This document shows, piece by piece, positions 11,381 to 64,000 of a stretch of DNA of 64,000 nucleotides. The notes beneath the pieces are model-generated. The model was given only the letters and a program-made list of their open reading frames with translations, ran no database searches and had not been told where the DNA came from. Origin of the DNA: a virus; IMG/VR virus record IMGVR_UViG_3300045988_183673. One strand, given 5' to 3'. The number at the start of each line of letters is the position of its first letter. Position 1 is the stretch's first letter. A program made the position numbers and the translations under genes.

Positions 11381-11400
11381 AAGAAGACTGCGCTGCAGGC

Positions 11401-28565: not shown

Positions 28566-28817
28566 TTAAACGAACAGGAACGGAACGTGAAGCAACAGAG
28601 CGTATGCCGCATCCATAATGCCAATAATAACGGCGGATACAGCACTCACAACAAGAACTGCTCCGGTTCGATGGAGCGTGTTGTGCATACTCGGCCAAGT
28701 CACATTTTTGGGTGCAACCAAATTGTGAAGCTTCTTAGGCGTGCTCTTGACGAAAGAAGGAATTGCCTTCACGAAATTCGCAATAGCCGTTCCTACCTTT
28801 TTCAGTTTATCTTTCAT
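28566..28817 (-). CDS. secE: SecE-like small membrane protein
   Basis: KNVTWPSMHNTLHRTGAVLVVSAVSAVIIGIMDAAYALL matches the SecE K-V-x-W-P motif plus a single TM. Start set at MKDKLKK (RBS GGAGG 6 nt upstream). Confidence 0.6.
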   Translation of the reverse strand: MKDKLKKVGTAIANFVKAIPSFVKSTPKKLHNLVAPKNVTWPSMHNTLHRTGAVLVVSAVSAVIIGIMDAAYALLLHVPFLFV

Positions 28818-29068
28818 GCCGCACCTCCTACTCCGGTTACTACGAACATGATGATTGCGATAACAAGCAGAATAGCTGTACATACAGCAACCAGTTTATT
28901 TGCGGACGTTTTCGTGCTGTCTTTAGCATTCGAGCGCATTGTATCACTGATTCCGGTGATAACACTAAGACTGTTCTTGTCGGCCTTATCCATGGAAAGC
29001 GTAACCGCACAAACCAGAACAGAAACCAACAGAATCAAGATGCACAGAATGATTTCATAAATTGCCAT
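28814..29068 (-). CDS. secG: SecG-like small membrane protein
   Basis: An 84-aa protein with N- and C-terminal TM helices (MAIYEIILCILILLVSVLVCAV...LVAVCTAILLVIAIIMFV) separated by a polar loop, as in SecG. Confidence 0.55.
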   Translation of the reverse strand: MAIYEIILCILILLVSVLVCAVTLSMDKADKNSLSVITGISDTMRSNAKDSTKTSANKLVAVCTAILLVIAIIMFVVTGVGGAA

Positions 29069-41560: not shown

Positions 41561-41798
41561 AAAAAATCCTCCGAACGAGTCGCAATATAGTTGAAAGTAC
41601 GAATTTTGGGATACTCTGCGCGATAAAATATAAGTGTCTACCAGATAACAATGGGACTCACTGACTGATGTATAGCGGTTGTTAAAACGGAAAGAACAAC
41701 TAATATACAACTGCCTGTTGTTATCATGATACCACACATGCAGTTGTCCAGCAACGAACTTTTGTTCGCATAGACAACAAAAAAGAAAGGAGTTATTT

Positions 41799-42029
41799 AT
41801 GCCATCCACCTTTGATACCATGGTAGGAAAGCGAATCAAAAAGCAACGAATGGAAATCAATTACAGCCAAGAACAGTTGGCGGCAAGCACGAATTGTTCC
41901 TATCGCTGCATCCAAAAATGGGAGTCAGGAAAGACGATGCCGCGAGCACAAATGCTATGCAATTTAGCAAAAGCCTTACATGTTTCGTCTGACTGGCTGC
42001 TTGGTATTTCCAATGACAGGAACGGTTAA
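41799..42029 (+). CDS. XRE-family (Cro/CI-type) HTH transcriptional regulator
   Basis: GKRIKKQRMEINYSQEQLAASTNCSYRCIQKWESGKTMPRAQMLCNLAKALHVSSDWLLG is a canonical XRE HTH. RBS AAAGGAG upstream. Confidence 0.8.
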   Translation: MPSTFDTMVGKRIKKQRMEINYSQEQLAASTNCSYRCIQKWESGKTMPRAQMLCNLAKALHVSSDWLLGISNDRNG

Positions 42030-49516: not shown

Positions 49517-50605
49517 TTAGGTTTTTTCGCTGTCTTCGCTATCTTCTTCTTTGCGGCTATCTTTAGAGAACCCGACAAAACCGCATGCGCCTGCGGAAAT
49601 TCCGAAGATTACTGCCATGATGGGCATGATGAGTCTGTTTCGATATACAGCGCCTACAATGAAATTGGCGTTAGCTACCTGCTCCAATACATAGTGCGCA
49701 ATCGCGCAAATCGTAAGTTCAGAAGCGTTACCGAACGATTCATCAAGACCGATGCTGAGCAACGACATGGAATAGGTTGCGCTGGCTACATACTTAATTT
49801 CGATAGGTGCAGCGGTTTCATATACAGCTACATAACTCTTGCCGGTATTCTTTTGACCGTAGATAGACAGTGTGCGGTAGAATCCGCCTTCTGCCCTTGC
49901 TACTGGGTCGCTTGTCCACTTACCGCCTGTGATTTTATAGGAATCACTGTTCAGACCGATGGCAGACATCAAATCACGCTTATAACCATCCCAAAGCGGT
50001 GTGGCGGGATTGTATGTGTGGACTTTTCCGAGATAGACATATGCGGTGGCACCTTCCGGAATTACGACTTGTCCATCAATCGTGAAATCGACCCATGTAT
50101 CGGTGTCCTCGACTTCATTGACCTCTTTCAGAACGCCTTCAACTTCCGTACCATCATCAAGAGTGAAGGTCTTGTTTTGCGGGGCGTTCGGTTTCTTGTC
50201 TTCGCCTTTATACTCTACTGTCATTTCTGTGGGAATATCGGCTTGCTCTTCCGTGTACTGAACATCTTCGAGCGGCAATTCATACTGTTCTCCGCCCAGC
50301 GTTACAGTATAAGTCTGAGGAACTTCTTTTACAGTCAAATCCGTATATTCTACGGTTTCTTGATACTTGGTATTGAGTTCCCTTTGCTGATAATCTACGC
50401 TGTCTTCGTCGAGGACATAGGTATTACCGTTCTCCTCAATTTCCTTCGGAAGAGGATTGGCATCGGCTTCTTCTTGGTCCTTGTAATTGAACTCACGAGT
50501 GATATCAATATCAATATCACCAAGAGAAGTCAACGCTTGTGTAGAAATACATCCTACACAAAGCAGCGCACTTACAAAAGCAAGCACTCTCATTACATTT
50601 TTCAT
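49517..50605 (-). CDS. Lipoprotein (signal peptide LLCVGCIS), about 363 aa
   Basis: Start set at MKNVMRVLAF. No good SD is near it, so the start is uncertain. The ORF track extends 85 codons upstream through the promoter box. Confidence 0.45.
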   Translation of the reverse strand: MKNVMRVLAFVSALLCVGCISTQALTSLGDIDIDITREFNYKDQEEADANPLPKEIEENGNTYVLDEDSVDYQQRELNTKYQETVEYTDLTVKEVPQTYTVTLGGEQYELPLEDVQYTEEQADIPTEMTVEYKGEDKKPNAPQNKTFTLDDGTEVEGVLKEVNEVEDTDTWVDFTIDGQVVIPEGATAYVYLGKVHTYNPATPLWDGYKRDLMSAIGLNSDSYKITGGKWTSDPVARAEGGFYRTLSIYGQKNTGKSYVAVYETAAPIEIKYVASATYSMSLLSIGLDESFGNASELTICAIAHYVLEQVANANFIVGAVYRNRLIMPIMAVIFGISAGACGFVGFSKDSRKEEDSEDSEKT

Positions 50606-50659
50606 AGCTTTTTTGGGCGTCTTAGCAGCTTGTCTGCCTGTACGCCGCCTCCTTTCGAA

Positions 50660-50700
50660 TTCTCCTTTTATTGTATCTACTTTGCAGCAAATAGCAAAGA
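50660..50700 (-). promoter_or_regulatory. TTGCTGCAAAGT-box (copy 11). Here it is preceded, not followed, by a terminator (50705-50738).
   Basis: Minus strand TTGCTGCAAAGTAGATACAATAAAAGGAG. Confidence 0.45.
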
Positions 50701-50704
50701 AAAA

Positions 50705-50738
50705 AGCCGAGCGGCTTATCACCGCTCGGCGTCCCCAT
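50705..50738 (-). terminator. Rho-independent terminator (GCCGAGCGG-tgataa-GCCGCTCGGC plus T6 on the minus strand)
   Basis: Perfect 9-bp stem after the stop of the 50745..51296 gene. Confidence 0.7.
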
Positions 50739-50744
50739 CTTATT

Positions 50745-51296
50745 TCAATTTTCGTTTGAATCTTCATCGAAGCTTGTGCTGACCCGTTCCTCTTTCGGAA
50801 TGTACTTGGGTGTGGGTTCACAGCGACATTTAAGTACATACTCACTGTCTCCAAATGCAAGCTCCATCAATGCTAACGGGTAGGCAAAAAATAGTTTCTT
50901 AGCAAACGCTTCATCTTTATCAAATGCTCTGGCAAGCTTCTTGTAAAAAAACCAGCAATAAATCGCCAATGCAATGGTACAGACTACATAATCGCAATCC
51001 AAAATCGTAAAGCGTGGATGTTGAACTCTATCCATAAAGAACGCAATCCAAAAGAACGATGGAATGCATGGGGCAATAGAACCGACACCGTATACTATGG
51101 GATATACACCGTAAGAGCCGTATGCGAAAATTAACGGCGATGCGCCTTTCTTGTACGCTTTATAAGACATTTTCATAACGCATACAAAAACAGTTATGAG
51201 CACGGCGTAAATCGGGAGCATGGCAATAACATGGAAAATACCGAGCTCTCTTGTAAAGGTGTACAAAAGTGTGCTTAAAAATAAAATAACTGGCAT
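50745..51296 (-). CDS. Integral membrane protein (4-5 TM)
   Basis: RBS GAGGAGG upstream. Promoter at 51319-51347. Confidence 0.55.
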   Translation of the reverse strand: MPVILFLSTLLYTFTRELGIFHVIAMLPIYAVLITVFVCVMKMSYKAYKKGASPLIFAYGSYGVYPIVYGVGSIAPCIPSFFWIAFFMDRVQHPRFTILDCDYVVCTIALAIYCWFFYKKLARAFDKDEAFAKKLFFAYPLALMELAFGDSEYVLKCRCEPTPKYIPKEERVSTSFDEDSNEN

Positions 51297-51544: not shown

Positions 51545-52204
51545 TTAGCCTACTGCGGTTTCGTCAGCAGGGGCCTCGGACTCAGCAGCAGAATCGGCCT
51601 CGGCAGTATCCTCAGAGGAAGCCTCCTCAGTGGATTCGGCGGCATCGCCATCAGTCTCGGCGCTTTCAGCCTCGCTGTCGGAAGCCTCACTGTCAGCAGC
51701 TTCGGATTCAGCAGTGCTCTCAGCCTCGGATGCGGCCGCTTCCTCAGCAGGCACGGAGGTAGCCACCAGCAGATTGCCCTCGGCATCAGCCTGACCACAG
51801 TTGTACAGATATGCGAACGCGGCGCTCAGATTGTCGAACTTGGACAGGTCAGGAACCTCAACAGTAGAACCGTCATCAGCGGTCTTGGTACCGTCGAAAT
51901 GAACGCTGCCATCCTCGTCATAGCGAACGGTGACGGTATAGCCATCGCTTGCCAGAGCCTCGGTCATATAAGCGGCATAAGCGTTCATGGTGGTCTTCAT
52001 CTGGTCCTCACTCAGAGAAACACCATCGGGCATCTCAGTCAGCTTGCTGTTATCCAGAACCTCAACTGCGGACTCACTGGTCGCGCCGCTTGCACTGGCA
52101 GCATCATCCTTCTTGCCACAACCAACAAATGCAGTGCAGGCCATTGCCATAGCGAGACACAGCGCAGCACCCTTCTTTACAGAACTCTTGTTAACCTTCT
52201 GCAT
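51545..52204 (-). CDS. Lipoprotein (lipobox FVGCG) with an acidic Ala/Glu/Ser-rich C-terminus
   Basis: Start set at MQKVNKSS (RBS AAAGGAGAAG 6 nt upstream). Confidence 0.55.
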   Translation of the reverse strand: MQKVNKSSVKKGAALCLAMAMACTAFVGCGKKDDAASASGATSESAVEVLDNSKLTEMPDGVSLSEDQMKTTMNAYAAYMTEALASDGYTVTVRYDEDGSVHFDGTKTADDGSTVEVPDLSKFDNLSAAFAYLYNCGQADAEGNLLVATSVPAEEAAASEAESTAESEAADSEASDSEAESAETDGDAAESTEEASSEDTAEADSAAESEAPADETAVG

Positions 52205-52272
52205 GAGTAACTTCTCCTTTTTCATGTGTGTTTGTTTGATGTGCATAAACAAGCTTCATGCACTATGCTTAT

Positions 52273-52380: not shown

Positions 52381-55300
52381 TTACTGCTTCTTTTCCTCGG
52401 TTTTATCCTCGGTCTTTTCAGCAGTTTTTTCTTCGCTATCGCCCTTCTTCTTCTTGACGATGACAAATGCGCCAACGCCAATCAGAGCAACAACAACGAT
52501 AACAGGAACGATGATGTCTGCGCCAAAACCAACGCCAGTCTTGTAGTTAACTACAACAGGTGCCGGAGTGGGAGCAGGTTCATTCTTGACTACAGGAGTC
52601 GGAGTCGGTCTGCTTTCTTCCGGAGGATTCTCCAGCTTAACACTTGCTACCCGAACATCACCGTAGTTGCCTGCCTTATCGACTGTACGGGTCACAATGT
52701 AACCAGTCCAATCGGGGCTCAGCTTGAAGGTAACGTAACCGTTGTCCTTATCAATGTTTGTGACATCGACAGTCTCGAACTTGGTTTCGTCGAAGGTGTA
52801 ATCGCCCTTAGCACTCTTGGCAATAGCAGAACCATTGACCTTGTAATACTGAATCTTAGCGACACCGGAGTTGTACTCGCCATCCAGAGCGGAAATAGCA
52901 GGAACGGAATCCTTGACCTTTACAACAGGCACGAAGTCAGGGTCTTCGGTATCGTCCTTATCACCGTTTTCGTCGGGAGTAGCAACGACATCGTTACCGT
53001 TTTCATCACCGGTCTCGTCGCCGGTTGTGAAGAGAGCGGGCTTACCATGAGCAATACGAAGCGTAGTGGCTTCGGTCTTGTCATCGGTCGTTTCGGTCTT
53101 CTCGGACTCGCTGGGAACTTTCTCCTCGGTACCGGATTCGGTTTCATCCTTCTTGTCGGAATCTTCCTTCTTATCGGTATCGTCGGTATCGTCCTTCTTG
53201 TCGTCTTCCTTCTCAGGTGCCTTGCCGGTCTCTTCACCAGTAATGAACACATTGATGGTGCTCTCGAACTTGACGAACTTCTCGTTCAGCAAATCGGTCT
53301 TATTGGTGGAATCAACCTTATCGGCAGCGAAAGCAGAAGCAACGACAGGAGCTTCGGTATCAACAGATGTGGTGATAGTTCCCATCTCGGTAATGGCACC
53401 TGTCTTCAGGTCAATCAGGTAATAGGTAGAAGTAACCTTCTCACTATTAGCGGAAATGACCATCTTCTCGGCCCACTCAGCATCGGTCAGGGAATCGCTG
53501 GTTCCGATTGCGTAACCCTTAGGAGCGATAACTTCAACCTTAGAGTTGAAGTACAGGCCACTCAGGTCATCAGTCGTCTTCTTGGTAACCTCAACAGGCT
53601 TGCCGGTCTTTTCGTCAGCCACAGTACCAACGATAGTTGCAGGTTCTACATCGGCAAGATGCAGACGCTGAACTTCGAGGTCTCCTGTGGTAGGCAGGTA
53701 ATTGTAGTTGTCGTAAGCGCCGCCAACATACTTGAAAGCGTCCTTCGTCAAGCCAACATTACCGAAGATACCATCGATGCTGGAAGCAACAATGAGTTCG
53801 AAGGAAGGCAGCTTAACGGTTTCAGCAGTCTCGTCGAAAGCGTAACCGCTGGTCTTGATTTCGGGAATCTCCGTCTTAGTGCCATACAGCTTGACGACGG
53901 GGTTCGGGTCGAGAGTAACCGTCAGGTCTTTGCGAGCGATAACAAACTGACCATCGGCTTCGTTCTTATCGGCATCGACGACATTGATTGTTACTGCGTA
54001 ATTCTGCTCAACAGCAGCATCGTAATCAGAGGTAACGGTGTAGGTGTAAGTACCAGCGTTCTTGACATTCTCAGTCTTGAACTGGCTGTCGCTCTCCACG
54101 CCGTCATCGCCGCTGGCGATGTCAGGAGTCAGAGTCGCCTTTGCATCAGCAGTCAAGGGAGCAGTCTGTGCATTGTCGGTGGTCTTGTCGTTCTCGAAAG
54201 GAGTATAAACAAGTGCCATCTTCAGGCCCAGAGAATCAGGTTTGACAGCTGCACCGTGTGTACCGTCGCCATTGGTGGCAACAGCATTTACGGTGAAGTC
54301 GGGGTTAGTGGTATCGCCATAGACGATATCCTTGGGCTCGGTGACAGTGACTTCGACCAGACGTTCGCCAATGGTATAAACGCCATTAACAATCGTAATC
54401 AGGTAATCGTCATTGTCGTAAGAACCGACCATGTCGTATGCACCGTAATTCTTGACAGATTCGGGCACGCTCTCCGCAACCAGAGAAGCAGCACCGTCAG
54501 CAGACTTCATGGAAATCTCTTCGGCAACCGCATTCTCAACATCCTTCTGAGTGATGCTGATAATAGCTTTCAGGTCATCGCCATTTACGATGGTCTTCTT
54601 ATCGGCATCGCCAGTATAGGTAAGAGTATTGCTCAGTTCAGCCATTTCATTGCCGTAGACAGAACCAACAGTGCCGATGGTCCAAGTCAGAGGACGCTGA
54701 GTGACCGTGTAAGTGCCGTTCATAGCAGTTACCAGATAATCCTGATAAGAAGCCTGACCGACGCGGTGAGCCAGACCGGAGAAGGAAGGAACAATGTCAT
54801 AGCCTCCGACATGGCTTGCAGAAGTGACGAGGCACAGGTTCGTGCCTTCCAGAATATCACCATTGACCAGAGCTGCCTTGGCAGTGTCACCAGTGTATTC
54901 CAGAACGTTCACGGTACCGTAATCAGACCAATCTTCAACAGCAACATCGTCGCCATAGATAGAAGTCTGGGGTTTAGCGGTGACAGTGATGGGACGCTTG
55001 TCGATAACAAAATCAACGGGAGCGTAAACAAAGGTGTAGTTGTTTGCTGCGGCATTCTCAACATTTGCAGGAACGACCTTGCCGGTACCAGCGTGAGAAG
55101 CTACCGTTGCGGGAGCTCCCTCAGCATCGGTAAAGTTGAAGGTCAGGTTTGCAATGCTCAGGACACCAGCATCATCGGGAGTGGTGTTGCCCTTGACGGG
55201 TTTCACAACGAATCCATCGAAAATCAGGTCATCGCCGGAGAGAACAGGGTTCTCATCGCCGTAAATCTTGCTCTGAGCTGCCAGAGTGACATTCAGAGTA

Positions 55301-58300
55301 GCAGGAGTGATTTCGAAGGTGTTGTTTACGCGGGTGATGTTGAAGTTGACATCGTCGCCCTCGATAATCATCGGGTGCTTGCCGACATCTTCACCAGCAT
55401 CGGTGCCAGCGTCAGGACGAACAACCTTCAGGTTTGCAAGGTCACCTGCATCTTCGCTTACATAGTAAGCGCCGTCGCCAGTTGCAGTCCAAGTCAGTTC
55501 GGGGTCAGCCTCGCCGTAGACCTTCTTCTGGCCTTCGTCAACAACCACGATTACATCGCGCTTATCGACATGCAGAGAACCATCAACAAAGACGATGGGG
55601 TCATAGTTCTTTGCGCCCTTGTTTTCCAGACCGCTCATGGTGATGACATAATCGCCAGCAGCAGGACGAGCAGGAATCTCGGACAGAGAACCGTCAGCAT
55701 TCTTGATGTTGTAGACAACCGAGCCAGTGAATGCGGAAGCAACGGTGTCATTGTTCTTCAGGCCAGTAACGGTGTAGCTGAACGTGGGAACGGTGCCGCC
55801 ATAAATCATGGAGTAACCGCCAGCCACGGTAAAGGTGACCTTAACGGGCTTGATGGTCAGAGTAGCAACTTCCATAGCTTCGGGCTCGGTGGTGGAAGAA
55901 CCAACGTCGACGGAAGTGCCGGAGCCAGTCACGATGGTGATGGCGTAGTTACCGTACTTGTTGTACAGAGTAGAGCTGATGGGGTATTCACCGACATCCT
56001 CACCGGCTTTGCGAGTAACAGAGCCGCTCAGAGCACCAGTAGTCAGTTCCAGCGTATTCTTCTTCAGACCATCGTTGGAAATGTTGCCGGAAATCTCGCT
56101 GTAAGAGAATGCGGGGTCTGCATCGCCGTAATCCTTCTCGTAGTTGGAGAAAGTCAGGGTGATGGGACGAGGAGTGATGGTGATGGTAGAATCAATCACC
56201 GTCAGGTCGTAGTTGGCAGGCTGTGCGTAGATAGCTTTCAGAGCATAAGTGCCAACGCTTGCGGAAGCAGAAGTTGCACCGGAAGTCAGGGTAATGCCCT
56301 TAAGAATCTTTTCGGCTTCTGCTGCCTGAACATCAGTAGTAGTCAGCAGACCAGTGCCGCCCTTGATGTAATCCTTCACGTTCATAGAAGTGAGGGTCTC
56401 ACCATAGGTCTTTTCGGTTTCGAGCAGGTTGATAACGGCAGTACGCTTATTGATGGTGAAGCGAACATCATTGGTGAAGCTGATACGATAGTTCTTTGCC
56501 ATCGTCTGCTCATAGATGTTACCGCTGTAAATCGGATAAGTGCCAGCGTTCTCGCCTGCTTCACGGCTCAGACGAGCCTGTGCGAAGTCGGCCTTGGGTT
56601 CTGCGAAGCTGGTGGTGTTGTAGTCGAAGATGACATAGGTATCGTTGACTGCAAAGCTGGGGTCAGTCTCGCCGTAAGTCTTGGACAGGCCATAGCGAGG
56701 AGTGATGGTCAGGGGCATCTGATGAACAATCAGCATGTTCTTGCCATCGGGCTCAGACAGCTTAACGCTGTTTGCGGGCTGGTTATCCAGACGGAAGGTC
56801 AGGTTGTAAGAACCTGCATCGTACAGACCAGAAGCGTTCGCAGTAGCCTCAACGGCGATACGAACAACACCCAGAGAAACATCCTTGCCGTCCATCTTGA
56901 TATTGACGGTTTCGCCATCGTGGTAAATCTGAGTGCCATCGGAGGTATTCACGTTGACGGAAACTTCCTTGGCGATGGTATCGGGCTTCTTCTCACCGTA
57001 AGTAGTCTGCAGTGCGTTGAAGGTGACAGAGACATCAGCCTCGGTGACTTGGAACGTGGCCTGCGGGGCAATCGTTACGATGTAGTTGGGGTTCTCATCA
57101 TAAGAGATGGTAGCCTCATAGTTGCCGACAACCGTAGTGGGGTCTTCCCACTTGGTCAGGTCGATGTGGATGTTCAGCGGGCTGCCCTGCGGGTCAACCA
57201 CATTGATAGCCTGAGAACCGGTCTCGTCATACAGCGCATAGCTGGGAGTGTTCTTACCGGCAACGCCGTACTTACGGACGCTGTTGGTAGTACCCTTGAT
57301 GGTGACAGGCAGTGCATTGATAGTCAGTGTACCGCTTGTACCATCGCTGTAAGTACCGGTGTAAACGATGTTGTAGTTGGGGTTGGTGTAACCGGAAACA
57401 ACAATAGGATAGGTACCGACACCAGTCAGCTTGCCAACGGTATTGTCAACGCCATACTTGATGGTGACAGTACCGCCCAGAGAAGCGACAGTATCATGGA
57501 TGCCAATTTCATCGTTGCTTGCGAAGTTCTTGTATTCCAGTGCGCCGGTAATGTCGGCATCGCTGGGATTCTCTGCGCCATACAGACGCTCACGGTTCGG
57601 AACGGTGATGGTCAGAGTACGCTTGGTGATAGTGTACTTATCGGGAGCATTGAAGGTGATGTCGTAGTTCTTGGCGATTTCAGCAGTCTGGAACTGTGCA
57701 TCGCTGTAAGCGTAAGAGCCAACAGTCTCGCCGACCTCACGAGTCACAACGCAGCCAGCAAAGTCGGAACCAACACGGCCGCCCTTGCCATTGACGGGGT
57801 CAAGAGTAAAGGCAACGCCGCCCTTGGCATCACTGTCGCCGTAAACCTTCGTCTGACCACCCATCACATTGATGGCGATAGGACGCTTGGTGACGGTCAG
57901 CTTGCTGTTGACAAAACGAACCAGATAGTTGTCGTAACGGTCGTAGTTCTTGCCATCGGCATTGGGGTCCCAGTCAGAAGACCAACGCTCCTGAGAAGCA
58001 CCCTGCACAGATGCGCTGACGGTGTATTCGCCAACATTGGCAGTTGTAGGAGTGCCGCTGTTGCCAGCCGCATCCACCATGGTAAAGCCAAGCTTATCCT
58101 CGGTCAAACCGATGCTTGCCTGTGTATCGTTCAGCTTGAAACCTTCGATGGATTTAATCTTGCCGGAACGAGCAGCGCCATACATTGCGGACAGGTCATC
58201 GAGAGTGACAGTCAGCATTGCAGGATGGATGATGTACTTGCTGTTGATGACCTTGACGTCATAGTAAGCAGTGCATGCAGGGGGAACTTCGACAGTCATC

Positions 58301-60333
58301 GGATATTCGCCAACATTCTTATTGTCGATATCCTGACGCTGTGTTGTCAGAACCATGCTGACCAGCTTGTTCACACCGTCATCAGCGGTGATGTCAGAAC
58401 CGGCGACAATACGCTTATCGGAGGCCACTGCCTGAGCAGCACCGTTATAAGCAACAGCGTCGAAGGTGATGGTGGAAGACTTGCCCTTTTCAGCCTCACC
58501 ATAGATGGCATCAATCTGGTCATTGGTGATGGTTACGTTACGCTTGGTAATTTCAAACGTTGCGGTAGCAAGGTTGATGTTATAACCATTGATAGGCGCA
58601 TTCGTCTGGATATTGCCGATTGTAACAGTGTAGCCACCGGGAGCAGAGGTGATGCTGGGCAGAACAACGGTGGGTTCACCGCTCAGACCAAGCATCTCTT
58701 TCAGAGCAACTGCGTTGGATTTGTGCTCGTTGTTGGTCTTATACTCGAAATTCGTCTTATCGGTATCAGACCAGCCGGTAATCACGAAGTCAACCTGAGG
58801 ATTCTGCTGACCATACTGACGAGTGGCTTTGCTGCCGGTCGTCTGTACGCCATCATTGCCCTTGAAGACAAATACAGGAGTCAGGGTCAGAGTCTTTTCA
58901 GAAACGACAACATACACATCGCCGGTATTGGGCTGAATGTCGATGTTGTAGTTCGTGTTGCTCTTCGCGGAGGAACCTAAGATGATTTTGTAAGAACCGG
59001 TAGTGTCCTTATCAAAGTTCTCTGTGGTCAGAACATCCGCAGGAAGCAGGTCGCCGTCAACCAGACCACCATTGGTATCCATAACGGTGTAGTTAATCTG
59101 GCTGATGGTATTGCCCTTCGTAACATAGGTGGTATGAGGGACAATGTAAATCTGACGCTTGTTAATAGTCACACCCGTGTCATTGCGGATGTTTTTGGAA
59201 GAATCCAAGTTGGAACCGTCAATGATGGTGTAATTCAGACCATTCACAGTAACGCTTGTGGCACCTGTATCAACATAAGTCGGATAAGTACCGGCATTGC
59301 AATGAATGTCTGTGGGATTCTGGCCGTCGCCGTCAGCCGGAGCATACATGATGAAGCTCAGACCGTCGATAGCTGCCTGAATATCCTTTTCGACTTCCTG
59401 AGAAGTACGGGAATCAGCAGTGCTGTATTCGATGGTCAGACCCTTAGACTTGAAAGAGTCACCGTAGGTGTAGGTAACAGTCTGAGGCAGAATGCGAATA
59501 ACATTCTCCTGACCGCTAATCTTGGTATACTGAATACCAGTGCCTGCGGCAATCTGCTTACCAGTCTCAGCAGCGGTGATTGCCTGATAGTCCCCGATGA
59601 CAGTCGTAGAACCGCCGCCATCAAACGCGCTGGCACCGCTGTTGTCTACAGGGTTTTCCTGACGGTCGCAAACCTGCAGATACAGGTCAGACATGTCAAG
59701 GTATGCATTCATGACGGGCTCTGCGACCTGCTCATCCTCGCTCAGAGAATAATACATGTCCTCAATGGGTTCCCAGTCATAAACTGCATCCAGTTCCTCA
59801 GTACGACGCGTGACCATCGCATCAAGAACCGCATTTTCCTTGTCAGCCTGCCATGCCTTGCTTGCAAGACCGAAGTTGTTTGCAGCAGTCAGAATTTCAT
59901 CTTTACGGCTTACAAGGGCGTTAGCCGCATCGATAAATGCCTGTGCTGCTTCACTGATGCTGCCAGTGGTAGAAGCTTCGCTGGAAGTGCTGGTGCTTGC
60001 ACCAGTATCAGAGGCAGCACTGTTTGCGTAGGCAGTGGTCGTTTCAGACCCCGCCTGACTTGTAGCCTCAGAAGAAACATCGCTCGTCACAGAAGTGTCG
60101 CTGGACGCGGAACTTGCTGTGTCGGTAACATCGCTTTTCGGCGCGGGAGTAGTAGCGGAAGAGTCGGAGTTTGTTGTCGTAGTGCTGAGTGCATCAGTTT
60201 CCTTCGGAGCTTCTTCACTCTGCGTGATTCCACTCGCGCTCTCTACTGCATAAGCAGTGACAGGAGCAAACTGAGACAGGCACATTGCTACGGCGACAAT
60301 CGCACTCAAAAACCGCTTACGAGGTTTCTGCAT
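52381..60333 (-). CDS. Giant cell-surface protein (about 2650 aa). Signal peptide, many MBG-type (YG-x3-P) Ig-like repeats, and a C-terminal sorting signal NYKTG + TM + KKKKGD.
   Basis: Start set at MQKPRKRFLSAIVAVAMCLSQFAPVTAYA (RBS AGGAGGG 8 nt upstream). Repeated ...TITKRxLTIT..xxKxYGxxDP... modules. The C-terminus is a classic cell-wall sorting signal. Confidence 0.7.
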   Translation of the reverse strand: MQKPRKRFLSAIVAVAMCLSQFAPVTAYAVESASGITQSEEAPKETDALSTTTTNSDSSATTPAPKSDVTDTASSASSDTSVTSDVSSEATSQAGSETTTAYANSAASDTGASTSTSSEASTTGSISEAAQAFIDAANALVSRKDEILTAANNFGLASKAWQADKENAVLDAMVTRRTEELDAVYDWEPIEDMYYSLSEDEQVAEPVMNAYLDMSDLYLQVCDRQENPVDNSGASAFDGGGSTTVIGDYQAITAAETGKQIAAGTGIQYTKISGQENVIRILPQTVTYTYGDSFKSKGLTIEYSTADSRTSQEVEKDIQAAIDGLSFIMYAPADGDGQNPTDIHCNAGTYPTYVDTGATSVTVNGLNYTIIDGSNLDSSKNIRNDTGVTINKRQIYIVPHTTYVTKGNTISQINYTVMDTNGGLVDGDLLPADVLTTENFDKDTTGSYKIILGSSAKSNTNYNIDIQPNTGDVYVVVSEKTLTLTPVFVFKGNDGVQTTGSKATRQYGQQNPQVDFVITGWSDTDKTNFEYKTNNEHKSNAVALKEMLGLSGEPTVVLPSITSAPGGYTVTIGNIQTNAPINGYNINLATATFEITKRNVTITNDQIDAIYGEAEKGKSSTITFDAVAYNGAAQAVASDKRIVAGSDITADDGVNKLVSMVLTTQRQDIDNKNVGEYPMTVEVPPACTAYYDVKVINSKYIIHPAMLTVTLDDLSAMYGAARSGKIKSIEGFKLNDTQASIGLTEDKLGFTMVDAAGNSGTPTTANVGEYTVSASVQGASQERWSSDWDPNADGKNYDRYDNYLVRFVNSKLTVTKRPIAINVMGGQTKVYGDSDAKGGVAFTLDPVNGKGGRVGSDFAGCVVTREVGETVGSYAYSDAQFQTAEIAKNYDITFNAPDKYTITKRTLTITVPNRERLYGAENPSDADITGALEYKNFASNDEIGIHDTVASLGGTVTIKYGVDNTVGKLTGVGTYPIVVSGYTNPNYNIVYTGTYSDGTSGTLTINALPVTIKGTTNSVRKYGVAGKNTPSYALYDETGSQAINVVDPQGSPLNIHIDLTKWEDPTTVVGNYEATISYDENPNYIVTIAPQATFQVTEADVSVTFNALQTTYGEKKPDTIAKEVSVNVNTSDGTQIYHDGETVNIKMDGKDVSLGVVRIAVEATANASGLYDAGSYNLTFRLDNQPANSVKLSEPDGKNMLIVHQMPLTITPRYGLSKTYGETDPSFAVNDTYVIFDYNTTSFAEPKADFAQARLSREAGENAGTYPIYSGNIYEQTMAKNYRISFTNDVRFTINKRTAVINLLETEKTYGETLTSMNVKDYIKGGTGLLTTTDVQAAEAEKILKGITLTSGATSASASVGTYALKAIYAQPANYDLTVIDSTITITPRPITLTFSNYEKDYGDADPAFSYSEISGNISNDGLKKNTLELTTGALSGSVTRKAGEDVGEYPISSTLYNKYGNYAITIVTGSGTSVDVGSSTTEPEAMEVATLTIKPVKVTFTVAGGYSMIYGGTVPTFSYTVTGLKNNDTVASAFTGSVVYNIKNADGSLSEIPARPAAGDYVITMSGLENKGAKNYDPIVFVDGSLHVDKRDVIVVVDEGQKKVYGEADPELTWTATGDGAYYVSEDAGDLANLKVVRPDAGTDAGEDVGKHPMIIEGDDVNFNITRVNNTFEITPATLNVTLAAQSKIYGDENPVLSGDDLIFDGFVVKPVKGNTTPDDAGVLSIANLTFNFTDAEGAPATVASHAGTGKVVPANVENAAANNYTFVYAPVDFVIDKRPITVTAKPQTSIYGDDVAVEDWSDYGTVNVLEYTGDTAKAALVNGDILEGTNLCLVTSASHVGGYDIVPSFSGLAHRVGQASYQDYLVTAMNGTYTVTQRPLTWTIGTVGSVYGNEMAELSNTLTYTGDADKKTIVNGDDLKAIISITQKDVENAVAEEISMKSADGAASLVAESVPESVKNYGAYDMVGSYDNDDYLITIVNGVYTIGERLVEVTVTEPKDIVYGDTTNPDFTVNAVATNGDGTHGAAVKPDSLGLKMALVYTPFENDKTTDNAQTAPLTADAKATLTPDIASGDDGVESDSQFKTENVKNAGTYTYTVTSDYDAAVEQNYAVTINVVDADKNEADGQFVIARKDLTVTLDPNPVVKLYGTKTEIPEIKTSGYAFDETAETVKLPSFELIVASSIDGIFGNVGLTKDAFKYVGGAYDNYNYLPTTGDLEVQRLHLADVEPATIVGTVADEKTGKPVEVTKKTTDDLSGLYFNSKVEVIAPKGYAIGTSDSLTDAEWAEKMVISANSEKVTSTYYLIDLKTGAITEMGTITTSVDTEAPVVASAFAADKVDSTNKTDLLNEKFVKFESTINVFITGEETGKAPEKEDDKKDDTDDTDKKEDSDKKDETESGTEEKVPSESEKTETTDDKTEATTLRIAHGKPALFTTGDETGDENGNDVVATPDENGDKDDTEDPDFVPVVKVKDSVPAISALDGEYNSGVAKIQYYKVNGSAIAKSAKGDYTFDETKFETVDVTNIDKDNGYVTFKLSPDWTGYIVTRTVDKAGNYGDVRVASVKLENPPEESRPTPTPVVKNEPAPTPAPVVVNYKTGVGFGADIIVPVIVVVALIGVGAFVIVKKKKGDSEEKTAEKTEDKTEEKKQ

Positions 60334-60639
60334 GTTAGTTGCCCTCCTAATAATGTGAGTGTTCTGTGGTTTTACCACAGCCGGATTTATATACACCCTT
60401 ACCTACTCCCTAGTGTGCAGCCTCGATTGTAGATAAGAAAGTATATCAAAACACAAGCAATCAAATCGCATATTTACAATATGCCACAAAAAGACAGAAA
60501 AGTCAATCAAAAATTTTGGCACAAAAATGCCACCCATGAACGCATTCTCATATTTCATATGGACATGGATGGTTGAAACATTAACGCAAAACCTGCTTGA
60601 CTATAGCTATTATTTGTTCTGAGAAATTTGATGCTGTAT

Positions 60640-60672
60640 TTATATCTATTATATTACTTACTTTGCAGCAAC
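60640..60672 (-). promoter_or_regulatory. TTGCTGCAAAGT-box (copy 12), upstream of the roughly 300-nt leader of the giant gene
   Basis: Minus strand TTGCTGCAAAGTAAGTAATATAATAGAT. Confidence 0.45.
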
Positions 60673-60717
60673 GGTCAATAATTATTCTGAAAATTAGAAG
60701 TTTTTTACGCAAAAAAA

Positions 60718-60756
60718 AGAGCGGCAGCTCTTTCGAACCACCGCTCTATTGTTTTA
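60718..60756 (-). terminator. Rho-independent terminator (AGAGCGG...CCGCTCT plus T8 on the minus strand)
   Basis: 7-bp stem plus a long U-run immediately after the stop of the DUF11-repeat gene. Confidence 0.65.
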
Positions 60757-60760
60757 CCGC

Positions 60761-63700
60761 TTATTCAGCGGAATCATCCTTATGGTTATCTTTGTTGTCG
60801 TTTTCGTCCTTCTTGCGCTTGTGGTTTACTACCACCAGAGCAGCGACGCCAATGCCAACCATTGCTACCAGACCAACAATGCTCTGTGCAAATCCGATAC
60901 CCGTCTTCTTGTTGCTCGTGAAGATAGAGAAGAGGGAGAAGGGCTTGCCGTCTACCTTGAAGATATCGAGCCAGCCAATCGGCGGGGTCTTGGGCTTCTC
61001 AGTAGGAACAGGGGTCGGAGTGGGCTTCGGGTTGTCAGGAGTCGGAGTCGGCTTAGGCTCGTCAGGCGTTGTGGGAGTAGAGGGTTTCACAACAGGGACT
61101 TTCACCTCGTTGGAAGGTTTCTCTACATCTTCATCAATCGGCTTGGACGGGTCCTTACCATGACCCGGATTCTCGGGGTCTTCGGGATTCTGACCCGGAG
61201 CCTTAGCGACAGCCACGTTAATGACATCGTGTCCGGCATCTGCGTCAACGGCAACATAAGAATAGGTCAGAGTGAAGGATTCGCCAACAGGGATACGAGC
61301 AATAGTGAACGTTGTCGTTGCGCTATTGTAAGTATATCCATCACCGTTCTGGGCTTCAATATGGCTTGCGCCATCATTGTTGTCCTTTACGGTTACATTG
61401 ACAAGGTCTACTTCACCGGTATTGGTTACTACCACACGATAATTGATGGTTTCACCGACATTGACTTTCGTCTTGTCAGCACTCTTCACAATCGTGAGGC
61501 TCTTTTCGAGCGGAACATCCGTTTCCGTACCGGAGCCCGGAACTTCCACATCAACCTTGTTGGACGGAATATCCGTATCAGGGTCAATCGGTTTCGTCGG
61601 GTCTTTACCCTGTCCGGGATTCTCCGGGTCTTCAGGGTTCGTACCGGGAACATGAATCGTCGCTACGTTTTCAAGAATGTGCGTGGTCACATCGGCGATA
61701 CCGACAGTATAAGCGTAGTGGACAACCACATCGCCGCCAGCAGGAATCGTGTCGATGGTGAATACACCATTCTCATAGTGATAACCAGCGCCATCCACTG
61801 CGAAAATGCTTCCGGAGAAGTTATTCTCATCAGTCAGAGCAGCATTCTGAATATCGTGGTCTTTACCATTGTGTACCGTTACGGTATAGGTGACAGTCTC
61901 ACCCGGCTTTGCGACAGTCTTGTTTGCAGACTTCCAGATGGTGACAACGCCATCATCAGGCTTCTTCACATCGACTGTATTGGACGGGATATTATACTGC
62001 TCGCCATCGTGCGTGTACTTAATGGTTGCGGTATTTTCCATAACGCTCTCATCGGTCGTCTCTACCGTATAGGTATAAACGATATCAAGAGCCTCACCGG
62101 CATCCAGATAACCGATAGTCCAAGTGCCGTCTCCGTTATAGGTATAGCGGTTAGAACTCTCAGCCGTAACATCACCCGCAAAGTTGTTATGGTCTGCGAC
62201 AGTGATATCGTTTACGGTTTCGTCTGTCGTATTCTTCACCGTAATGGTGTAGGTCACAACATCCGTTACCTTGGCAATATACTTATCGGCATCCTTTTCA
62301 ACATCGATAGGCGGTGTCGGGTCTTTCACAACAGCAGCGTTCAGAACCTTAGGAGCATCAGCGGTAACTACCACATAGGTGAAGTTAAGCGTTACGCTCT
62401 CGCCAGCCTTTACAGTGCTGATGGTATAGGAGTTGTCGCCGTTATCCGCAACACCATCCATAGGTACGAAGTTGAGCGTTCCGTTGCCATCGAAGAAGTC
62501 TTCGACAACAACATTTTCCGCATCAACCTTGCCCTTGTTGGCGACAGTAACCGTATAGTTGAGCGTATCGCCAACCTTGGCTTCTGCCTTATCAACGGAC
62601 TTGGTGATTTCAATTACAGGAATCTCTGTTTCGGTTTCAGAGCCGGGAACTTCCACATCAACCTTATTGGACGGAATCTCCGTATCGGGGTCAATGGGCT
62701 TCTCGGGGTCTTTGCCGTGACCCGGATTATTCGGGTCTTCGGGATTCGTACCGGGAACATGGATTGTTGCAATGTTTTCGAGAATCTGCGTGGGCACATC
62801 ACTGATTTCAACCGTATAGGTGTAGTGGATAACCACATCACCACCTGCGGGAATCTTATTGATAGTGAATTCACCGTTCTCGAAGGTGTAATCCGCACCG
62901 TCAACGCCTACGATTTCACCAGCAAAGTTGTTGGTATCAGTCAAACGAGCGTTCTCGATGTCGTGATTCTTTCCGTTATGCACCGTGACAGTGTAGGTAA
63001 CGACTTCACCCGGCTCAGCCTTCGTCTTATCGGCAGCCTTACGAATGGTGACAACACCATCGTCTGGCTTCTCAACATCAACGGGGTTAGAGGGGATGTT
63101 GTAGTCGGTGCCGTCCTTGCTGTAAATCACCTTTGCAGTGTTTTCGATGACGGTGGCATCCTCAGCCTGCATCGTATAGGTGTAGGTGATGTTGATGGTC
63201 TCGCCAGCAGCGATGGACGGGATAGTCCACGTCTTGTCGCCATTGTAAATGTAATTATCAGCGTTTTCGGCCTTGATTTCGCCCTTGAAGTTGTTGGTAT
63301 CAGTAACCGTTACATTGTCAACAGATTCGGAAGTGGTATTCTTCACGGAAATCGTGTAGGTTACAACCTCGTCTACCTTTGCAATGTGCTTGTCGGCTTC
63401 CTTCTCAACATCAACAGGCGGTGTCGGGTCTTTAATTACTGCGGCGTTCAGCACGAGAGGTTCGTCTCCTTCAACTACAACATAGCTGAAACGAAGCTTT
63501 ACGCTCTCCCCTGCCTTGACCGTAGAAATGTTGTAGGTGTTATCTCCGTTATCTGTCACGCCGTCCATGGCCTTGAAGTTCAGCGTTCCGTTTCCGTCAA
63601 AGAAGTCCTTAATCAGAACATTCTCGGCATCCGCGTTACCGCCGTTCTTGACAGTAATCGTGTAGTTCAGAGTATCACCAATCTTGGCGGTAGGCTTATC

Positions 63701-64000
63701 TACAGACTTGGTAATGGAGATTTCCGGAATCTCGGTCTCAACTTCGGAACCGGGGACTTCCACTTCGACCTTGTTGGACGGAATATCCGTATCGGGGTCA
63801 ATGGGTTTATCCGGGTCCTTGCCGTGTCCGGGATTCTCAGGGTCTTCCGGATTCGTGCCGGGCACATGTGCCGTGGCAACGTTTTCCAGAATGTGAGTGG
63901 GTACATCTGCAATCTGCACCGTGTAGGTGTAGGTCAGAACAGCGTCTGCATCAGCAGCAATCTTATCGATTACAAAGTGTCCGTCAACGAACTTGTAGCC
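60761..64000 (-). CDS. DUF11 (conserved-repeat-domain) surface protein, partial; the N-terminus lies beyond the window end. C-terminal sorting signal SNKKTG + TM + HKRKKDEND.
   Basis: At least three tandem modules of about 330 aa (...ADVPTHILENVATIHVPGTNPEDPENPGxGKDPxKPIDPDTDIPSNKVDVEVPGS...). The reading frame stays open to position 64000. Confidence 0.7.
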   Translation of the reverse strand, partial: GYKFVDGHFVIDKIAADADAVLTYTYTVQIADVPTHILENVATAHVPGTNPEDPENPGHGKDPDKPIDPDTDIPSNKVEVEVPGSEVETEIPEISITKSVDKPTAKIGDTLNYTITVKNGGNADAENVLIKDFFDGNGTLNFKAMDGVTDNGDNTYNISTVKAGESVKLRFSYVVVEGDEPLVLNAAVIKDPTPPVDVEKEADKHIAKVDEVVTYTISVKNTTSESVDNVTVTDTNNFKGEIKAENADNYIYNGDKTWTIPSIAAGETINITYTYTMQAEDATVIENTAKVIYSKDGTDYNIPSNPVDVEKPDDGVVTIRKAADKTKAEPGEVVTYTVTVHNGKNHDIENARLTDTNNFAGEIVGVDGADYTFENGEFTINKIPAGGDVVIHYTYTVEISDVPTQILENIATIHVPGTNPEDPNNPGHGKDPEKPIDPDTEIPSNKVDVEVPGSETETEIPVIEITKSVDKAEAKVGDTLNYTVTVANKGKVDAENVVVEDFFDGNGTLNFVPMDGVADNGDNSYTISTVKAGESVTLNFTYVVVTADAPKVLNAAVVKDPTPPIDVEKDADKYIAKVTDVVTYTITVKNTTDETVNDITVADHNNFAGDVTAESSNRYTYNGDGTWTIGYLDAGEALDIVYTYTVETTDESVMENTATIKYTHDGEQYNIPSNTVDVKKPDDGVVTIWKSANKTVAKPGETVTYTVTVHNGKDHDIQNAALTDENNFSGSIFAVDGAGYHYENGVFTIDTIPAGGDVVVHYAYTVGIADVTTHILENVATIHVPGTNPEDPENPGQGKDPTKPIDPDTDIPSNKVDVEVPGSGTETDVPLEKSLTIVKSADKTKVNVGETINYRVVVTNTGEVDLVNVTVKDNNDGASHIEAQNGDGYTYNSATTTFTIARIPVGESFTLTYSYVAVDADAGHDVINVAVAKAPGQNPEDPENPGHGKDPSKPIDEDVEKPSNEVKVPVVKPSTPTTPDEPKPTPTPDNPKPTPTPVPTEKPKTPPIGWLDIFKVDGKPFSLFSIFTSNKKTGIGFAQSIVGLVAMVGIGVAALVVVNHKRKKDENDNKDNHKDDSAE

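Follow-up and report, generated by a model that had tools for sequence, protein, structure and literature searches.

Candidate proline-less sorting signals on two giant adhesin-like proteins of a Hodor megaplasmid that also encodes a class B sortase

Two giant adhesin-like proteins encoded on a human-gut megaplasmid both end in an N-x-K-T-G pentapeptide followed by a hydrophobic span and a K/R cluster, the three-part layout of a sortase signal, and the stretch of DNA that encodes them also carries a class B sortase gene. We give a probability of about 0.55 to the reading that the class B sortase encoded on the plasmid anchors both giants to the cell wall through this proline-less signal. The DNA analyzed, called the window throughout, is a stretch of 64,000 nucleotides filed as virus record IMGVR_UViG_3300045988_183673.

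The window belongs to a conjugative megaplasmid of the ‘Hodor’ type from human-gut Bacillota, an element described in a preprint from Hadza and other human-gut samples (Yuan et al., bioRxiv 2026, PMC12934698). The Hodor gene set is present, comprising the hyp-SecY-SecG-SecE-trigger factor-class B sortase block, the >7300-aa giant followed by the ~2642-aa MBG protein, and genes for ParM and TnpB are also in common with the Hodor module. Size and origin agree as well (>200 kb, human gut, formerly filed among huge phages): IMG/VR contigs 99% identical to the window measure 346 kb and 241 kb and are filed as ‘viruses’, and Hadza gut contigs of 149–207 kb match the origin of Hodor. Rep_3, ParA/ParB, a T4SS (VirB4, VirD4, VirB6) and a class A sortase are further Hodor features, encoded beyond the window and the fetched loci. 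In the preprint, both giants are putative sortase-anchored proteins with signal peptides that fit the CWSS paradigm (motif, TM helix, K/R tail), the hyp-SecY-SecG-SecE-trigger factor-class B sortase module is described, and the anchoring enzyme is left as ‘class A and/or B’ (PMC12934698). The system has been known since February 2026, including both giants, the layout of their sorting signals and the SecYGE-trigger factor-sortase B module. The preprint's main text does not name the motif, whose sequence is given here; also added are a motif census, the invariance of T-G alone, a switch to QAPTG in a sister group and the lipobox of the foldase. The features of the two giants, all read from the translation, are as follows.

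52381..60333, minus strand: MBG_2-repeat giant, 2650 aa, starting MQKPRKRF; the ‘~2642 aa’ Hodor protein
60247..60333, minus strand: Sec-type signal peptide of the MBG giant, MQKPRKRFLSAIVAVAMCLSQFAPVTAYA followed by VES, read by eye
52534..52548, minus strand: NYKTG pentapeptide of the MBG giant, proposed scissile bond between T and G
52381..52533, minus strand: remaining MBG sorting signal, with VGFGAD, hydrophobic span IIVPVIVVVALIGVGAFVIV, KKKK, a 20-aa K/E/D/T-rich extension and the stop
60761..64000, minus strand, running off the window: last 1079 aa of the giant with DUF11/CLIPPER repeats, which corresponds to the Hodor protein of ‘>7300 aa’
60899..60913, minus strand: NKKTG pentapeptide of the DUF11 giant, proposed scissile bond between T and G
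60761..60898, minus strand: remaining DUF11 sorting signal, with IGFAQS, hydrophobic span IVGLVAMVGIGVAALVVV, NHKRKKD, a 14-aa acidic/basic extension and the stop

The MBG giant matches Pfam MBG_2 over seven stretches (8e-49), and its signal peptide is typical of Sec, ending in ...APVTAYA before VES. The second giant matches Pfam DUF11 (1.9e-79) and DUF7507, NCBIfam TIGR01451 and the isopeptide D2 domain TIGR04226 (50.7 bits; cutoff 30). Its reading frame leaves the window, as the first-pass annotation had stated, and, followed onto an IMG/VR contig with 99% identity (merged loci L035 and L015), it spans 7166 aa or more, a lower bound, as the frame still leaves the fetched DNA before the N-terminus is reached. 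The DUF11 modules, previously described as near-identical units of about 330 aa, have a period of 1107 nt (369 aa), and adjoining modules are 55–75% identical at the protein level.

Translation reproduced both C-termini as the first-pass annotation quoted them, with motif, hydrophobic span and charged tail in the order of a cell-wall sorting signal, though its quotations stop early. The MBG giant continues after ...KKKKGD- with SEEKTAEKTEDKTEEKKQ to the stop, and the DUF11 giant after ...NHKRKKD- with ENDNKDNHKDDSAE. The tails therefore run on for 14–20 residues past the K/R cluster, placing the start of the motif 55 residues (MBG) and 50 residues (DUF11) before the protein end, with 50 and 45 residues after the G, respectively, which is longer than in classical signals. 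Both motifs fall outside a published screening rule of 17–45 residues from the C-terminus (PMC4155245). The curated C-terminal sortase-signal models, such as TIGR01167 (LPXTG anchor) and NF033846 (‘Rumino_NPXTG’), describe signals like the window tails in kind, and neither tail passes them or similar models: TIGR01167 gives the MBG tail a score of 14.4, short of its cutoff of 15.9, over the hydrophobic part only, with the motif outside the match, and the DUF11 tail has no match among the NCBIfam sorting-signal models. NF033846 weakly matches the tail of a DUF11 relative that carries PSKTG (16.9 bits, cutoff 23.5).

Within each giant, N.KTG occurs once, immediately before the hydrophobic span, against ~0.39 occurrences expected in the 9817 residues of both proteins combined. 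A six-frame scan of the window for x-x-x-T-[GNSA] with a C-terminal hydrophobic span found no further open reading frame, once frame artefacts and a SecG-like reading frame had been set aside. The conservation of the signal was followed in 15 aligned sorting tails from relatives of both families (32–100% identity). T and G are the sole motif residues invariant in all 15, across two unrelated passenger families, while the Pro-rich linkers flanking T-G vary freely. N stands at position 1 in eight tails and K at position 3 in ten; seven carry strict N-x-K-T-G (NYKTG, NKKTG, NWKTG, NSKTG), and the others read PSKTG, IPKTG, IPQTG, QSQTG, NPPTG, LPATG or QAPTG. The shared N-x-K-T-G proposed from the two giants extends to clade C, with N and K not invariant over the set. 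NKKTG of the DUF11 giant is kept in the sister clade, where the MBG motif is QAPTG; clade C, a third clade only 50% identical, has N-x-K-T-G on both proteins, as NWKTG in the DUF11 giant and NYKTG in the MBG giant. Absence of the motif from orthologous giants, which the first-pass annotation had named as evidence against its reading, applies in part, with QAPTG in the sister-group MBG protein and IPQTG, IPKTG, QSQTG, NPPTG and canonical LPATGD in remoter orthologues. LPSTGA is carried by a DUF11 relative, and PAKTG also occurs among relatives of the giants. In some orthologues the textbook signals LPATGD, IPKTG, IPQTG and LPSTGA occupy the same position, which identifies it as a sortase site. 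Judged from the aligned tails, the motif is best expressed as [N>P,I,Q]-x-[K>Q,P]-T-G-[V/I]-G.

On sequence grounds, the motif of the giants is a proline-less relative of class B NPXTG signals. Class B sortases recognize NPXTG or NPQTN (PMC11987632), and NYKTG and NKKTG agree with the class B pattern NP(Q/K)(T/S)(N/G/S) at positions 1, 3, 4 and 5; N at position 1 and K at position 3 fit that pattern (PMC11987632, PMC8225981). The Pro at position 2, a residue that matters in most sortase signals, is replaced by Y or K in the window and by W or S in relatives. A close known signal is NPKTG of Bacillus anthracis IsdC, cleaved between T and G (PMC8225981), which fits N-x-K-T-G except at position 2. 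Listeria monocytogenes SrtB reads NAKTN and NPKSS (PMC8225981), and NAKTN, itself devoid of proline at position 2, is a precedent for N-x-K-T-, although in Listeria the last residue of the signal is N or S where the giants have G. The motif is less unusual than first described, amounting to the IsdC signal with a relaxed proline. Sortase recognition extends past the pentapeptide, with which the conserved G-[V/I]-G-[F/L] of the giants agrees (B. anthracis SrtB/IsdC, PMC11987632). The substrates differ: IsdC is a small haem-binding NEAT protein and the Listeria substrates are small, iron-related and encoded in the sortase operon, in contrast to the giant adhesin-like repeat proteins considered here. 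The candidate enzyme and the genes around it are listed below.

26363..27334, minus strand: class B sortase, 323 aa (TIGR03064 at 7e-22, triad, PDB profiles, fold)
27346..28509, minus strand: FKBP/trigger-factor-like protein, 387 aa, lipoprotein signal peptide (...ALTAC before S), start from the 387-aa gene call in locus L001
28566..28817, minus strand: plasmid-encoded SecE (Pfam SecE 33.4 bits; same gene called in locus L001)
28814..29068, minus strand: SecG-like 84-aa membrane protein (Pfam SecG 18.8 bits, below cutoff), named SecG in PMC12934698
29084..30424, minus strand: plasmid-encoded SecY (TIGR00967 330 bits; Pfam SecY 7e-87)
40601..41860: ParM/Alp7A-like gene, seen in the window

Catalytic triad, PDB profiles and predicted fold all place the enzyme at 26363..27334 in class B, as the first-pass annotation had proposed. 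From its N-terminus it comprises an acidic cytoplasmic region, a transmembrane helix (hydrophobic stretch WTVLLVVICIVLIAMIGYIGW; residues 69–96 in the AF2 model), a linker and a catalytic domain (approximately residues 140–323) modeled at pLDDT ~90. The catalytic residues H209 (IFGHSNGN), C303 (LILSTC, a cysteine motif of T-L-x-T-C type) and R312 (TRF) are invariant in 24 homologues. All 15 matches in the PDB profile search are class B, the best being B. anthracis SrtB (1rz2, E 3e-38), and Listeria SrtB also matches (5jcv, E 2.7e-33; Foldseek TM-score 0.84, target-normalised). With the AF2 model as query, class B sortases fill Foldseek ranks 1–19 (E 1e-16 to 1e-11), whereas matches of class A begin only at 1.6e-7. 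The sequence scores 77.9 bits against TIGR03064, below the cutoff of 153.75, and has no match to Pfam Sortase (PF04203) at E<=0.01, with a weak PF04203 match in some homologues. It is ~27% identical to B. anthracis SrtB, from which it also differs by a long acidic N-terminal extension, and represents a divergent class B subfamily.

The sortase gene travels with the giants over part of the family. Sortase, SecYGE, foldase and both giants occur together in the clade of the window and in its sister clade; the sortase-SecY-SecE-FKBP block is kept in a clade with a 70%-identical sortase; and the MBG-ParM-SecY-SecG-SecE order persists down to 34–37% MBG identity, with the sortase no longer adjoining the MBG-SecYGE block in distant relatives. 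The linkage between sortase and giants proposed earlier is loose in the window itself, where 25 kb separate the sortase from the MBG stop codon, and tighter in the sister clade (~8.7 kb). The FKBP/trigger-factor-like lipoprotein is probably an extracytoplasmic foldase.

We propose a pathway in which both giants would be exported by Sec, possibly through the plasmid's SecYEG and with assistance from its FKBP lipoprotein as a foldase. Held in the membrane by its hydrophobic C-terminal span and K/R cluster, the precursor would then meet the class B sortase (26363..27334), which would cut the T-G bond within [N>P,I,Q]-x-[K>Q,P]-T-G-[V/I]-G and transfer the protein to a host peptidoglycan precursor, so that the adhesins would be displayed covalently on the wall. 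Once displayed, the giants would probably serve cell–cell contact or plasmid spread. A bolder version, which we put forward tentatively, is that the plasmid carries a self-contained, orthogonal display kit made of its own SecYEG, a membrane-tethered, extracytoplasmic FKBP foldase, a divergent class B sortase and a private, proline-less N-x-K-T-G-[V/I]-G-[F/L] signal that host sortases and standard annotation models would not recognize. Such a kit would show adhesins of 2650 aa and >7000 aa on varied Bacillota independently of host sortase specificity, and would keep host LPXTG proteins out of the pathway.

The first-pass annotation suggested that the giants form a substrate pair specific to the linked class B sortase. 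Assigning them to this enzyme is an inference, since a class A sortase is also found on Hodor plasmids, beyond the present window, and the preprint speaks of ‘class A and/or B’ for the anchoring (PMC12934698). The signals could be genuine and yet be read by another enzyme, the class A sortase of the plasmid, the class C sortase of group G1 or a host housekeeping sortase, leaving the class B sortase of the SecYGE operon with a different substrate or role; we consider this rather unlikely. LPATGD of the MBG orthologue is a canonical class A signal, and LPSTGA in the DUF11 relative points the same way, as does the separation of the class B-type sortase from the MBG-SecYGE block in distant relatives. 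According to PMC12934698, group G1 has an additional class C sortase, outside the window, and it is the MBG motif of this group that has turned to QAPTG; a single enzyme would need to accept both this QAPTG and the NKKTG of the giant. Against another enzyme, the window motifs lack the L and P of LPXTG and start with Asn, a class B hallmark (PMC11987632), and the class B sortase is, in the preprint, among the few genes common to both Hodor groups and co-transcribed with the foldase beside the region of the giants (PMC12934698). The window and the fetched loci around the module (~65 kb of the closest IMG/VR contig) yielded no sortase other than this one.

The unusual length of the tails bears on a different explanation, in which the protein stays in the membrane for good by a single-pass C-terminal anchor that escapes sortase cleavage, T-G-[V/I]-G is conserved as the extracellular helix boundary and the long charged tail has a function of its own in the cytoplasm. 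Consistent with this, MBG orthologues as little as 38% identical share a tail stretch like ‘KTEDK(T/P)EE’, the curated sorting-signal models are not passed, and C. difficile SrtB does not cleave the proline-less NVQTG in vitro (PMC4155245). The tail similarity is, however, of low-complexity K/E/D/T type and may reflect composition only. Orthologues with short tails carry unmistakable signals at the same position (LPATGD then RRRKNFLRK; NSKTG then KKKRKADK), T-G stays invariant while its surroundings drift, and a dedicated sortase is co-conserved with both giants, all of which makes a permanent anchor improbable. That the class B sortase is instead a pilin-type polymerase joining the giants into fibres, like streptococcal class B pilus sortases, which read QVPTG/EVPTG, is very improbable: the DUF11 giant has the isopeptide-forming fimbrial D2 domain, 3psq and 4y4q of that group are among the structural matches, and QAPTGV of the sister clade seems to resemble the QVPTGV class of signals (TIGR03065), but both searches rank the housekeeping-type SrtB enzymes (B. 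anthracis, Listeria, C. difficile, S. aureus) above the pilus enzymes, and giants of 2650 aa and >7000 aa do not resemble pilins.

Anchoring of both giants by the plasmid's class B sortase would have a functional parallel in PrgB/Asc10 of pCF10, where large plasmid-encoded adhesins, covalently wall-anchored, promote donor–recipient contact. Gram-positive aggregation substances of this kind use LPXTG and the host sortase A, whereas here the plasmid itself encodes a sortase, SecYEG and a foldase, and its giants exceed those adhesins 2 to 5 times in size. If the class B sortase reads N-x-K-T-G-[V/I]-G, class B specificity would be widened to proline-less signals, a new orthogonal sortase/tag pair would become available for protein ligation, and it would become clear how a gut megaplasmid of broad host range puts giant adhesins of its own on different hosts. 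Both giants escape the NCBIfam sorting-signal models and the usual screens at 17–45 residues from the end, so similar substrates in gut Clostridia and on their mobile elements are likely under-annotated.

Among clostridial enzymes, C. difficile SrtB reads (S/P)PXTG (SPKTG, PPKTG, SPQTG; NVQTG was also proposed) and cuts between T and G (PMC4155245). Its requirement for proline calls for caution with NYKTG and NKKTG, while its x-x-K/Q-T-G signals are close to the IPKTG, IPQTG, PSKTG and PAKTG found among relatives of the giants. In an Acetatifactor MAG with a distant homologue of the window sortase, a neighbouring protein ends in SPKTGE, a hydrophobic span and RREK.

Both giant genes lie on the minus strand, and their products share the C-terminal layout of a sortase cell-wall sorting signal (CWSS), consisting of a short motif, a hydrophobic span and a K/R cluster:

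52381..60333, minus strand: MBG protein, 2650 aa by translation, with seven Pfam MBG_2 stretches
60761..>64000, minus strand: DUF11/DUF7507 repeat protein (Pfam), last 1079 aa, directly upstream of the MBG gene

In translation, the MBG protein opens with a Sec-type signal peptide (MQKPRKRFLSAIVAVAMCLSQFAPVTAYA/VES) and ends ...PAPVVV-NYKTG-VGFGAD-IIVPVIVVVALIGVGAFVIV-KKKK-GDSEEKTAEKTEDKTEEKKQ-stop, and the DUF11 giant ends ...SIFTS-NKKTG-IGFAQS-IVGLVAMVGIGVAALVVV-NHKRKKD-ENDNKDNHKDDSAE-stop. The first-pass annotation had both C-termini right as far as it quoted them, stopping 18 and 14 residues short of the ends. Its picture of the DUF11 giant as a series of near-identical modules of about 330 aa was only roughly right: a repeat search gave a period of 1107 nt (369 aa), with neighbouring modules 55–75% identical, a period to which Tandem Repeats Finder, with a longest period of 500, is blind. 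Followed onto a contig of 99% identity, the ORF of the DUF11 giant measures at least 7166 aa without ending inside the fetched DNA, and so corresponds to the ‘>7300 aa’ giant of the Hodor preprint (bioRxiv, February 2026, PMC12934698). The pattern N.KTG occurs once per giant, exactly at the tail position, with ~0.39 occurrences expected in the 9817 residues of both proteins. Frame artefacts and a SecG-like ORF excepted, a six-frame scan of the window found no other ORF with x-x-x-T-[GNSA] followed by a hydrophobic span near the stop.

In both giants K/E/D/T-rich sequence carries the sorting signal on for 14–20 residues past the K/R cluster (52381..52470 and 60761..60820, minus strand); a ‘KTEDK(T/P)EE’-like stretch recurs in the tails of MBG orthologues down to 38% identity. 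Such tails are unusually long for a piece discarded after cleavage, and the cause may be compositional.

Orthologues were collected from IMG/VR and by an exhaustive HMMER search in which the C-terminal 519 aa of the MBG protein served as query (15 clusters at 50% identity); relatives of the DUF11 giant came from a database search with its last 266 aa, and neighbouring ORFs on the relatives’ contigs were also read.

Motif and following residues at the conserved tail position, by group of relatives.
Window clade: MBG NYKTG-VGF; DUF11 giant NKKTG-IGF
Sister Hodor clade: MBG QAPTG-VGL; DUF11 giant NKKTG-IGF
Clade C (50% identical): MBG NYKTG-VSL; DUF11 NWKTG-IGF (gene upstream of the clade C MBG gene)
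More distant MBG relatives: IPQTG-ITA; NSKTG-VGP (two clusters); QSQTG-VSI; IPKTG-IGF; NPPTG-IEL; LPATG-DTF; RPETG-DRS
More distant DUF11 relatives: PSKTG-VG (two clusters); PAKTG-VGL; LPSTG-ADV

In an alignment of 15 of the collected tails, whose consensus is NxKTGVG, only T and G are invariant, and the steadiest core is K-T-G-[V/I]-G. Some relatives carry a textbook LPXTG or [SI]P[KQ]TG signal at the same position. An invariant T-G on a hydrophobic span, together with these textbook signals, argues strongly on comparative grounds that sortase cleaves here. The proposal that the two proteins share a strict N-x-K-T-G motif held in part: the motif is present on both proteins in two separate clades, but occurs in only seven of the 15 tails and gives way to QAPTG in the sister group, which partly refutes the strict form by the criterion that the first-pass annotation had set. 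Judging from the alignment, its N and K are preferences, not rules.

The motif switch was seen in the higher-GC sister group (L025–L028 and L008, loci from IMGVR_UViG_3300045988_181067 and its relatives), in which QAPTG-VGL replaces NYKTG on the MBG protein and the >7300-aa giant keeps NKKTG. This group is probably G1, one of the two Hodor groups; GC content puts the window clade in G2. The change of motif may accompany the extra class C sortase of G1.

Set against characterized signals, the window motifs match the class B pattern at four of five positions, with only the proline missing. B. anthracis SrtB cuts IsdC at NPKT/G, and the signals of Listeria SrtB are NAKTN and NPKSS (PMC8225981); C. 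difficile SrtB cuts SPKTG, PPKTG, SPSTG and SPQTG between T and G and leaves the proline-less NVQTG uncut (PMC4155245). Listeria NAKTN is a class B signal without the proline, and NVQTG serves as a warning; class B sortases also read residues outside the pentapeptide (PMC11987632). Standard models did not detect the signals: with NCBIfam sorting-signal models run on eight tails (E<=10), only TIGR01167 on the LPATGD orthologue scored above cutoff. Both window motifs lie at or past the outer edge of the usual search range of ‘17–45 residues from the end’. A search of the accessible literature did not find NYKTG, NKKTG, NSKTG, NWKTG or NxKTG as sortase motifs, and an alignment of the two tails gave no match at E<=10 in a database of 5.8 billion proteins because the query was too short. 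Sorting of the PEP-CTERM, archaeosortase or rhombosortase type was rejected; the matches were weak and confined to the hydrophobic span, and no such enzyme is present.

A candidate enzyme is encoded in a secretion block on the same strand, with the same layout as in the Hodor preprint:

29084..30424, minus strand: SecY (TIGR00967, 330 bits)
28814..29068, minus strand: SecG-like ORF, 84 aa (Pfam SecG, 18.8 bits, below cutoff)
28566..28817, minus strand: SecE (33 bits)
27346..28509, minus strand: FKBP/trigger-factor-like gene, next to the sortase gene
26363..27334, minus strand: sortase, with an acidic N-terminal region, one transmembrane helix, a linker and a catalytic domain

The sortase residues H209, C303 (in LSTC) and R312 are invariant in 24 homologues. 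A profile of these homologues matched only class B enzymes in the PDB, from B. anthracis (3e-38), Listeria (3e-33), C. difficile (5e-33) and S. aureus (4e-29). The catalytic domain of an AlphaFold2 model has a pLDDT of ~90, and a structure search with this model placed class B enzymes at ranks 1–19, with class A appearing only from E 1.6e-7. By its sequence the sortase is a divergent enzyme, scoring 78 bits against a TIGR03064 cutoff of 153.75 and lacking a Pfam Sortase match. Its relatives number 43 among 5.8 billion proteins, all metagenomic, and a profile scan of genome contigs for GTDB species representatives returned a single one, at 24% identity, in an Acetatifactor MAG; binned genomes essentially lack the clade. 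The only matches in plasmid and phage collections were ordinary class B sortases, at ~25–34% identity.

In the Acetatifactor sp. MAG (locus L004, JAFLRM010000018.1, ~10001..11780), the sortase adjoins a 291-residue ORF ending ...VSPKTGE, a hydrophobic span and RREKFTK; the two make up a sortase-substrate pair of the classical clostridial class B kind. In locus L044 (GCA_020047415.1, JAHZTL010000674.1, 10001..20091), a sortase of the window’s clade, 42% identical, has an IS200/IS605 TnpA-TnpB pair just upstream; after it come two Peptidase_M73 (camelysin/TasA-like) genes and a >2165-aa giant ORF running off the contig, which may represent an alternative set of substrates for this sortase family. 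Directly downstream of the window sortase (24851..26198, minus strand) are genes for small multi-pass membrane proteins of 199 and 109 aa, without a family. A 199-aa gene with the same C-terminus occupies the same place in three relatives’ loci (L001–L003), where the other small ORFs are of 104 and 105 aa.

The ‘trigger factor’ beside the sortase starts with a lipoprotein signal peptide and lipobox (MKKNAKMILAVISAACIALTAC/S), and its TIGR00115 match spans only profile positions 108–371, so that the ribosome-binding N domain is missing. These features suggest an extracytoplasmic FKBP foldase tethered to the membrane and PrsA-like in role, rather than a cytosolic trigger factor.

Most window ORFs have no Pfam or PHROG family, and the assigned ones (ParM/Alp7A-like actin, PIN7, DUF1281_C, TnpB, SPFH/flotillin protein, radical SAM enzyme, non-specific nuclease) point to a mobile element. 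Contigs 95–99% identical come from the human gut and measure 149–207 kb (Hadza) and 241–346 kb (IMG/VR). According to the preprint, Hodors are conjugative megaplasmids of the human gut, 211–389 kb long, which fall into two groups (G1 and G2) and were originally catalogued with huge phages (PMC12934698); this explains the window’s presence in IMG/VR. The idea of a huge phage, which that presence had raised, was dropped; the window has no phage structural genes, and PHROGs gave one family of unknown function (ten window proteins). The system itself is already described in the preprint: according to its Methods, both giants ‘conform to’ the CWSS paradigm (motif, TM helix, K/R tail), and the main text does not name the motif (PMC12934698). 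New in the present analysis are a census of the motifs, their reading as class B signals without proline, the observation that standard models miss them and the motif switch of G1.

The tails are thus almost certainly sortase signals, as the first-pass annotation had read them, and assigning them to class B is reasonable; that they form a specific substrate pair for the plasmid’s class B sortase is unproven. The layout of the tails, their pattern of conservation, the class of the enzyme and the conservation of the genes together are shown directly. We favor, at a probability of roughly 0.55, a scheme in which the giants would be exported by Sec and held as precursors by the hydrophobic span and K/R cluster, after which this sortase would cleave between T and G and attach them covalently to the host wall, with the plasmid SecYEG and lipoprotein foldase as putative dedicated helpers. 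Anchored giants might then act in mating or adhesion.

Gene order tempers the idea of a specific pair. MBG orthologues at 34–37% identity still lie upstream of the ParM-like gene and the SecY-SecG-like-SecE block (L042, L047, L048), and the place of the ParM-like gene between MBG and SecY is kept in distant relatives (L034, L042, L048). The related sortase in those distant elements sits elsewhere, beside DNA polymerase III alpha and topoisomerase, and the link between adhesin and SecYEG is therefore deeper than that between adhesin and sortase. From the sortase to the MBG stop codon is ~8.7 kb in the sister clade versus 25 kb in the window; sample SRR14298095 holds an NSKTG-bearing MBG contig and a separate contig with a sortase of the window’s clade.

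Anchoring by another enzyme, either a plasmid class A sortase, the class C sortase of G1 or a host sortase, is a weaker but serious possibility, at about half the weight of the favored scheme. According to the preprint, all Hodors carry a class A sortase and an extra class C enzyme is present in G1 (PMC12934698), which is also the group whose MBG motif became QAPTG; a search of all ORFs in the window and fetched loci, with S. aureus SrtA and a class B profile as queries, found no second sortase. That the span is a permanent membrane anchor, never cleaved, is unlikely; the long, compositionally conserved tails and the uncut NVQTG (PMC4155245) are in its favor, but orthologues with LPATGD or NSKTG have short tails. 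It is highly improbable that the sortase joins the giants like pilins.

An IS605-family TnpB (OrfB_IS605, Cas12f1-like TNB, HTH; 32255..33358, plus strand), the only clear plus-strand gene in a long minus-strand run, is inserted between the secretion block and the genes upstream of it. Between the sortase block and the giants are the ParM/Alp7A-like actin (40601..41860, minus strand; MreB-like_C, 3e-12) and the SPFH/flotillin protein (47616..49151, minus strand). The preprint puts the giant and the genes downstream of it in one transcript (PMC12934698). Just downstream of the MBG gene, 51545..52252 (minus strand) encodes a probable lipoprotein (…CTAFVGC/GKK) whose C-terminal half is very acidic and rich in S/E/A. 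The product of 49517..50860 (minus strand), also downstream, ends in a hydrophobic span and a KDSRKEEDSEDSEKT tail without a T-G motif, and in clade C (L034) a gene downstream of MBG codes for a protein that shares this C-terminal span.
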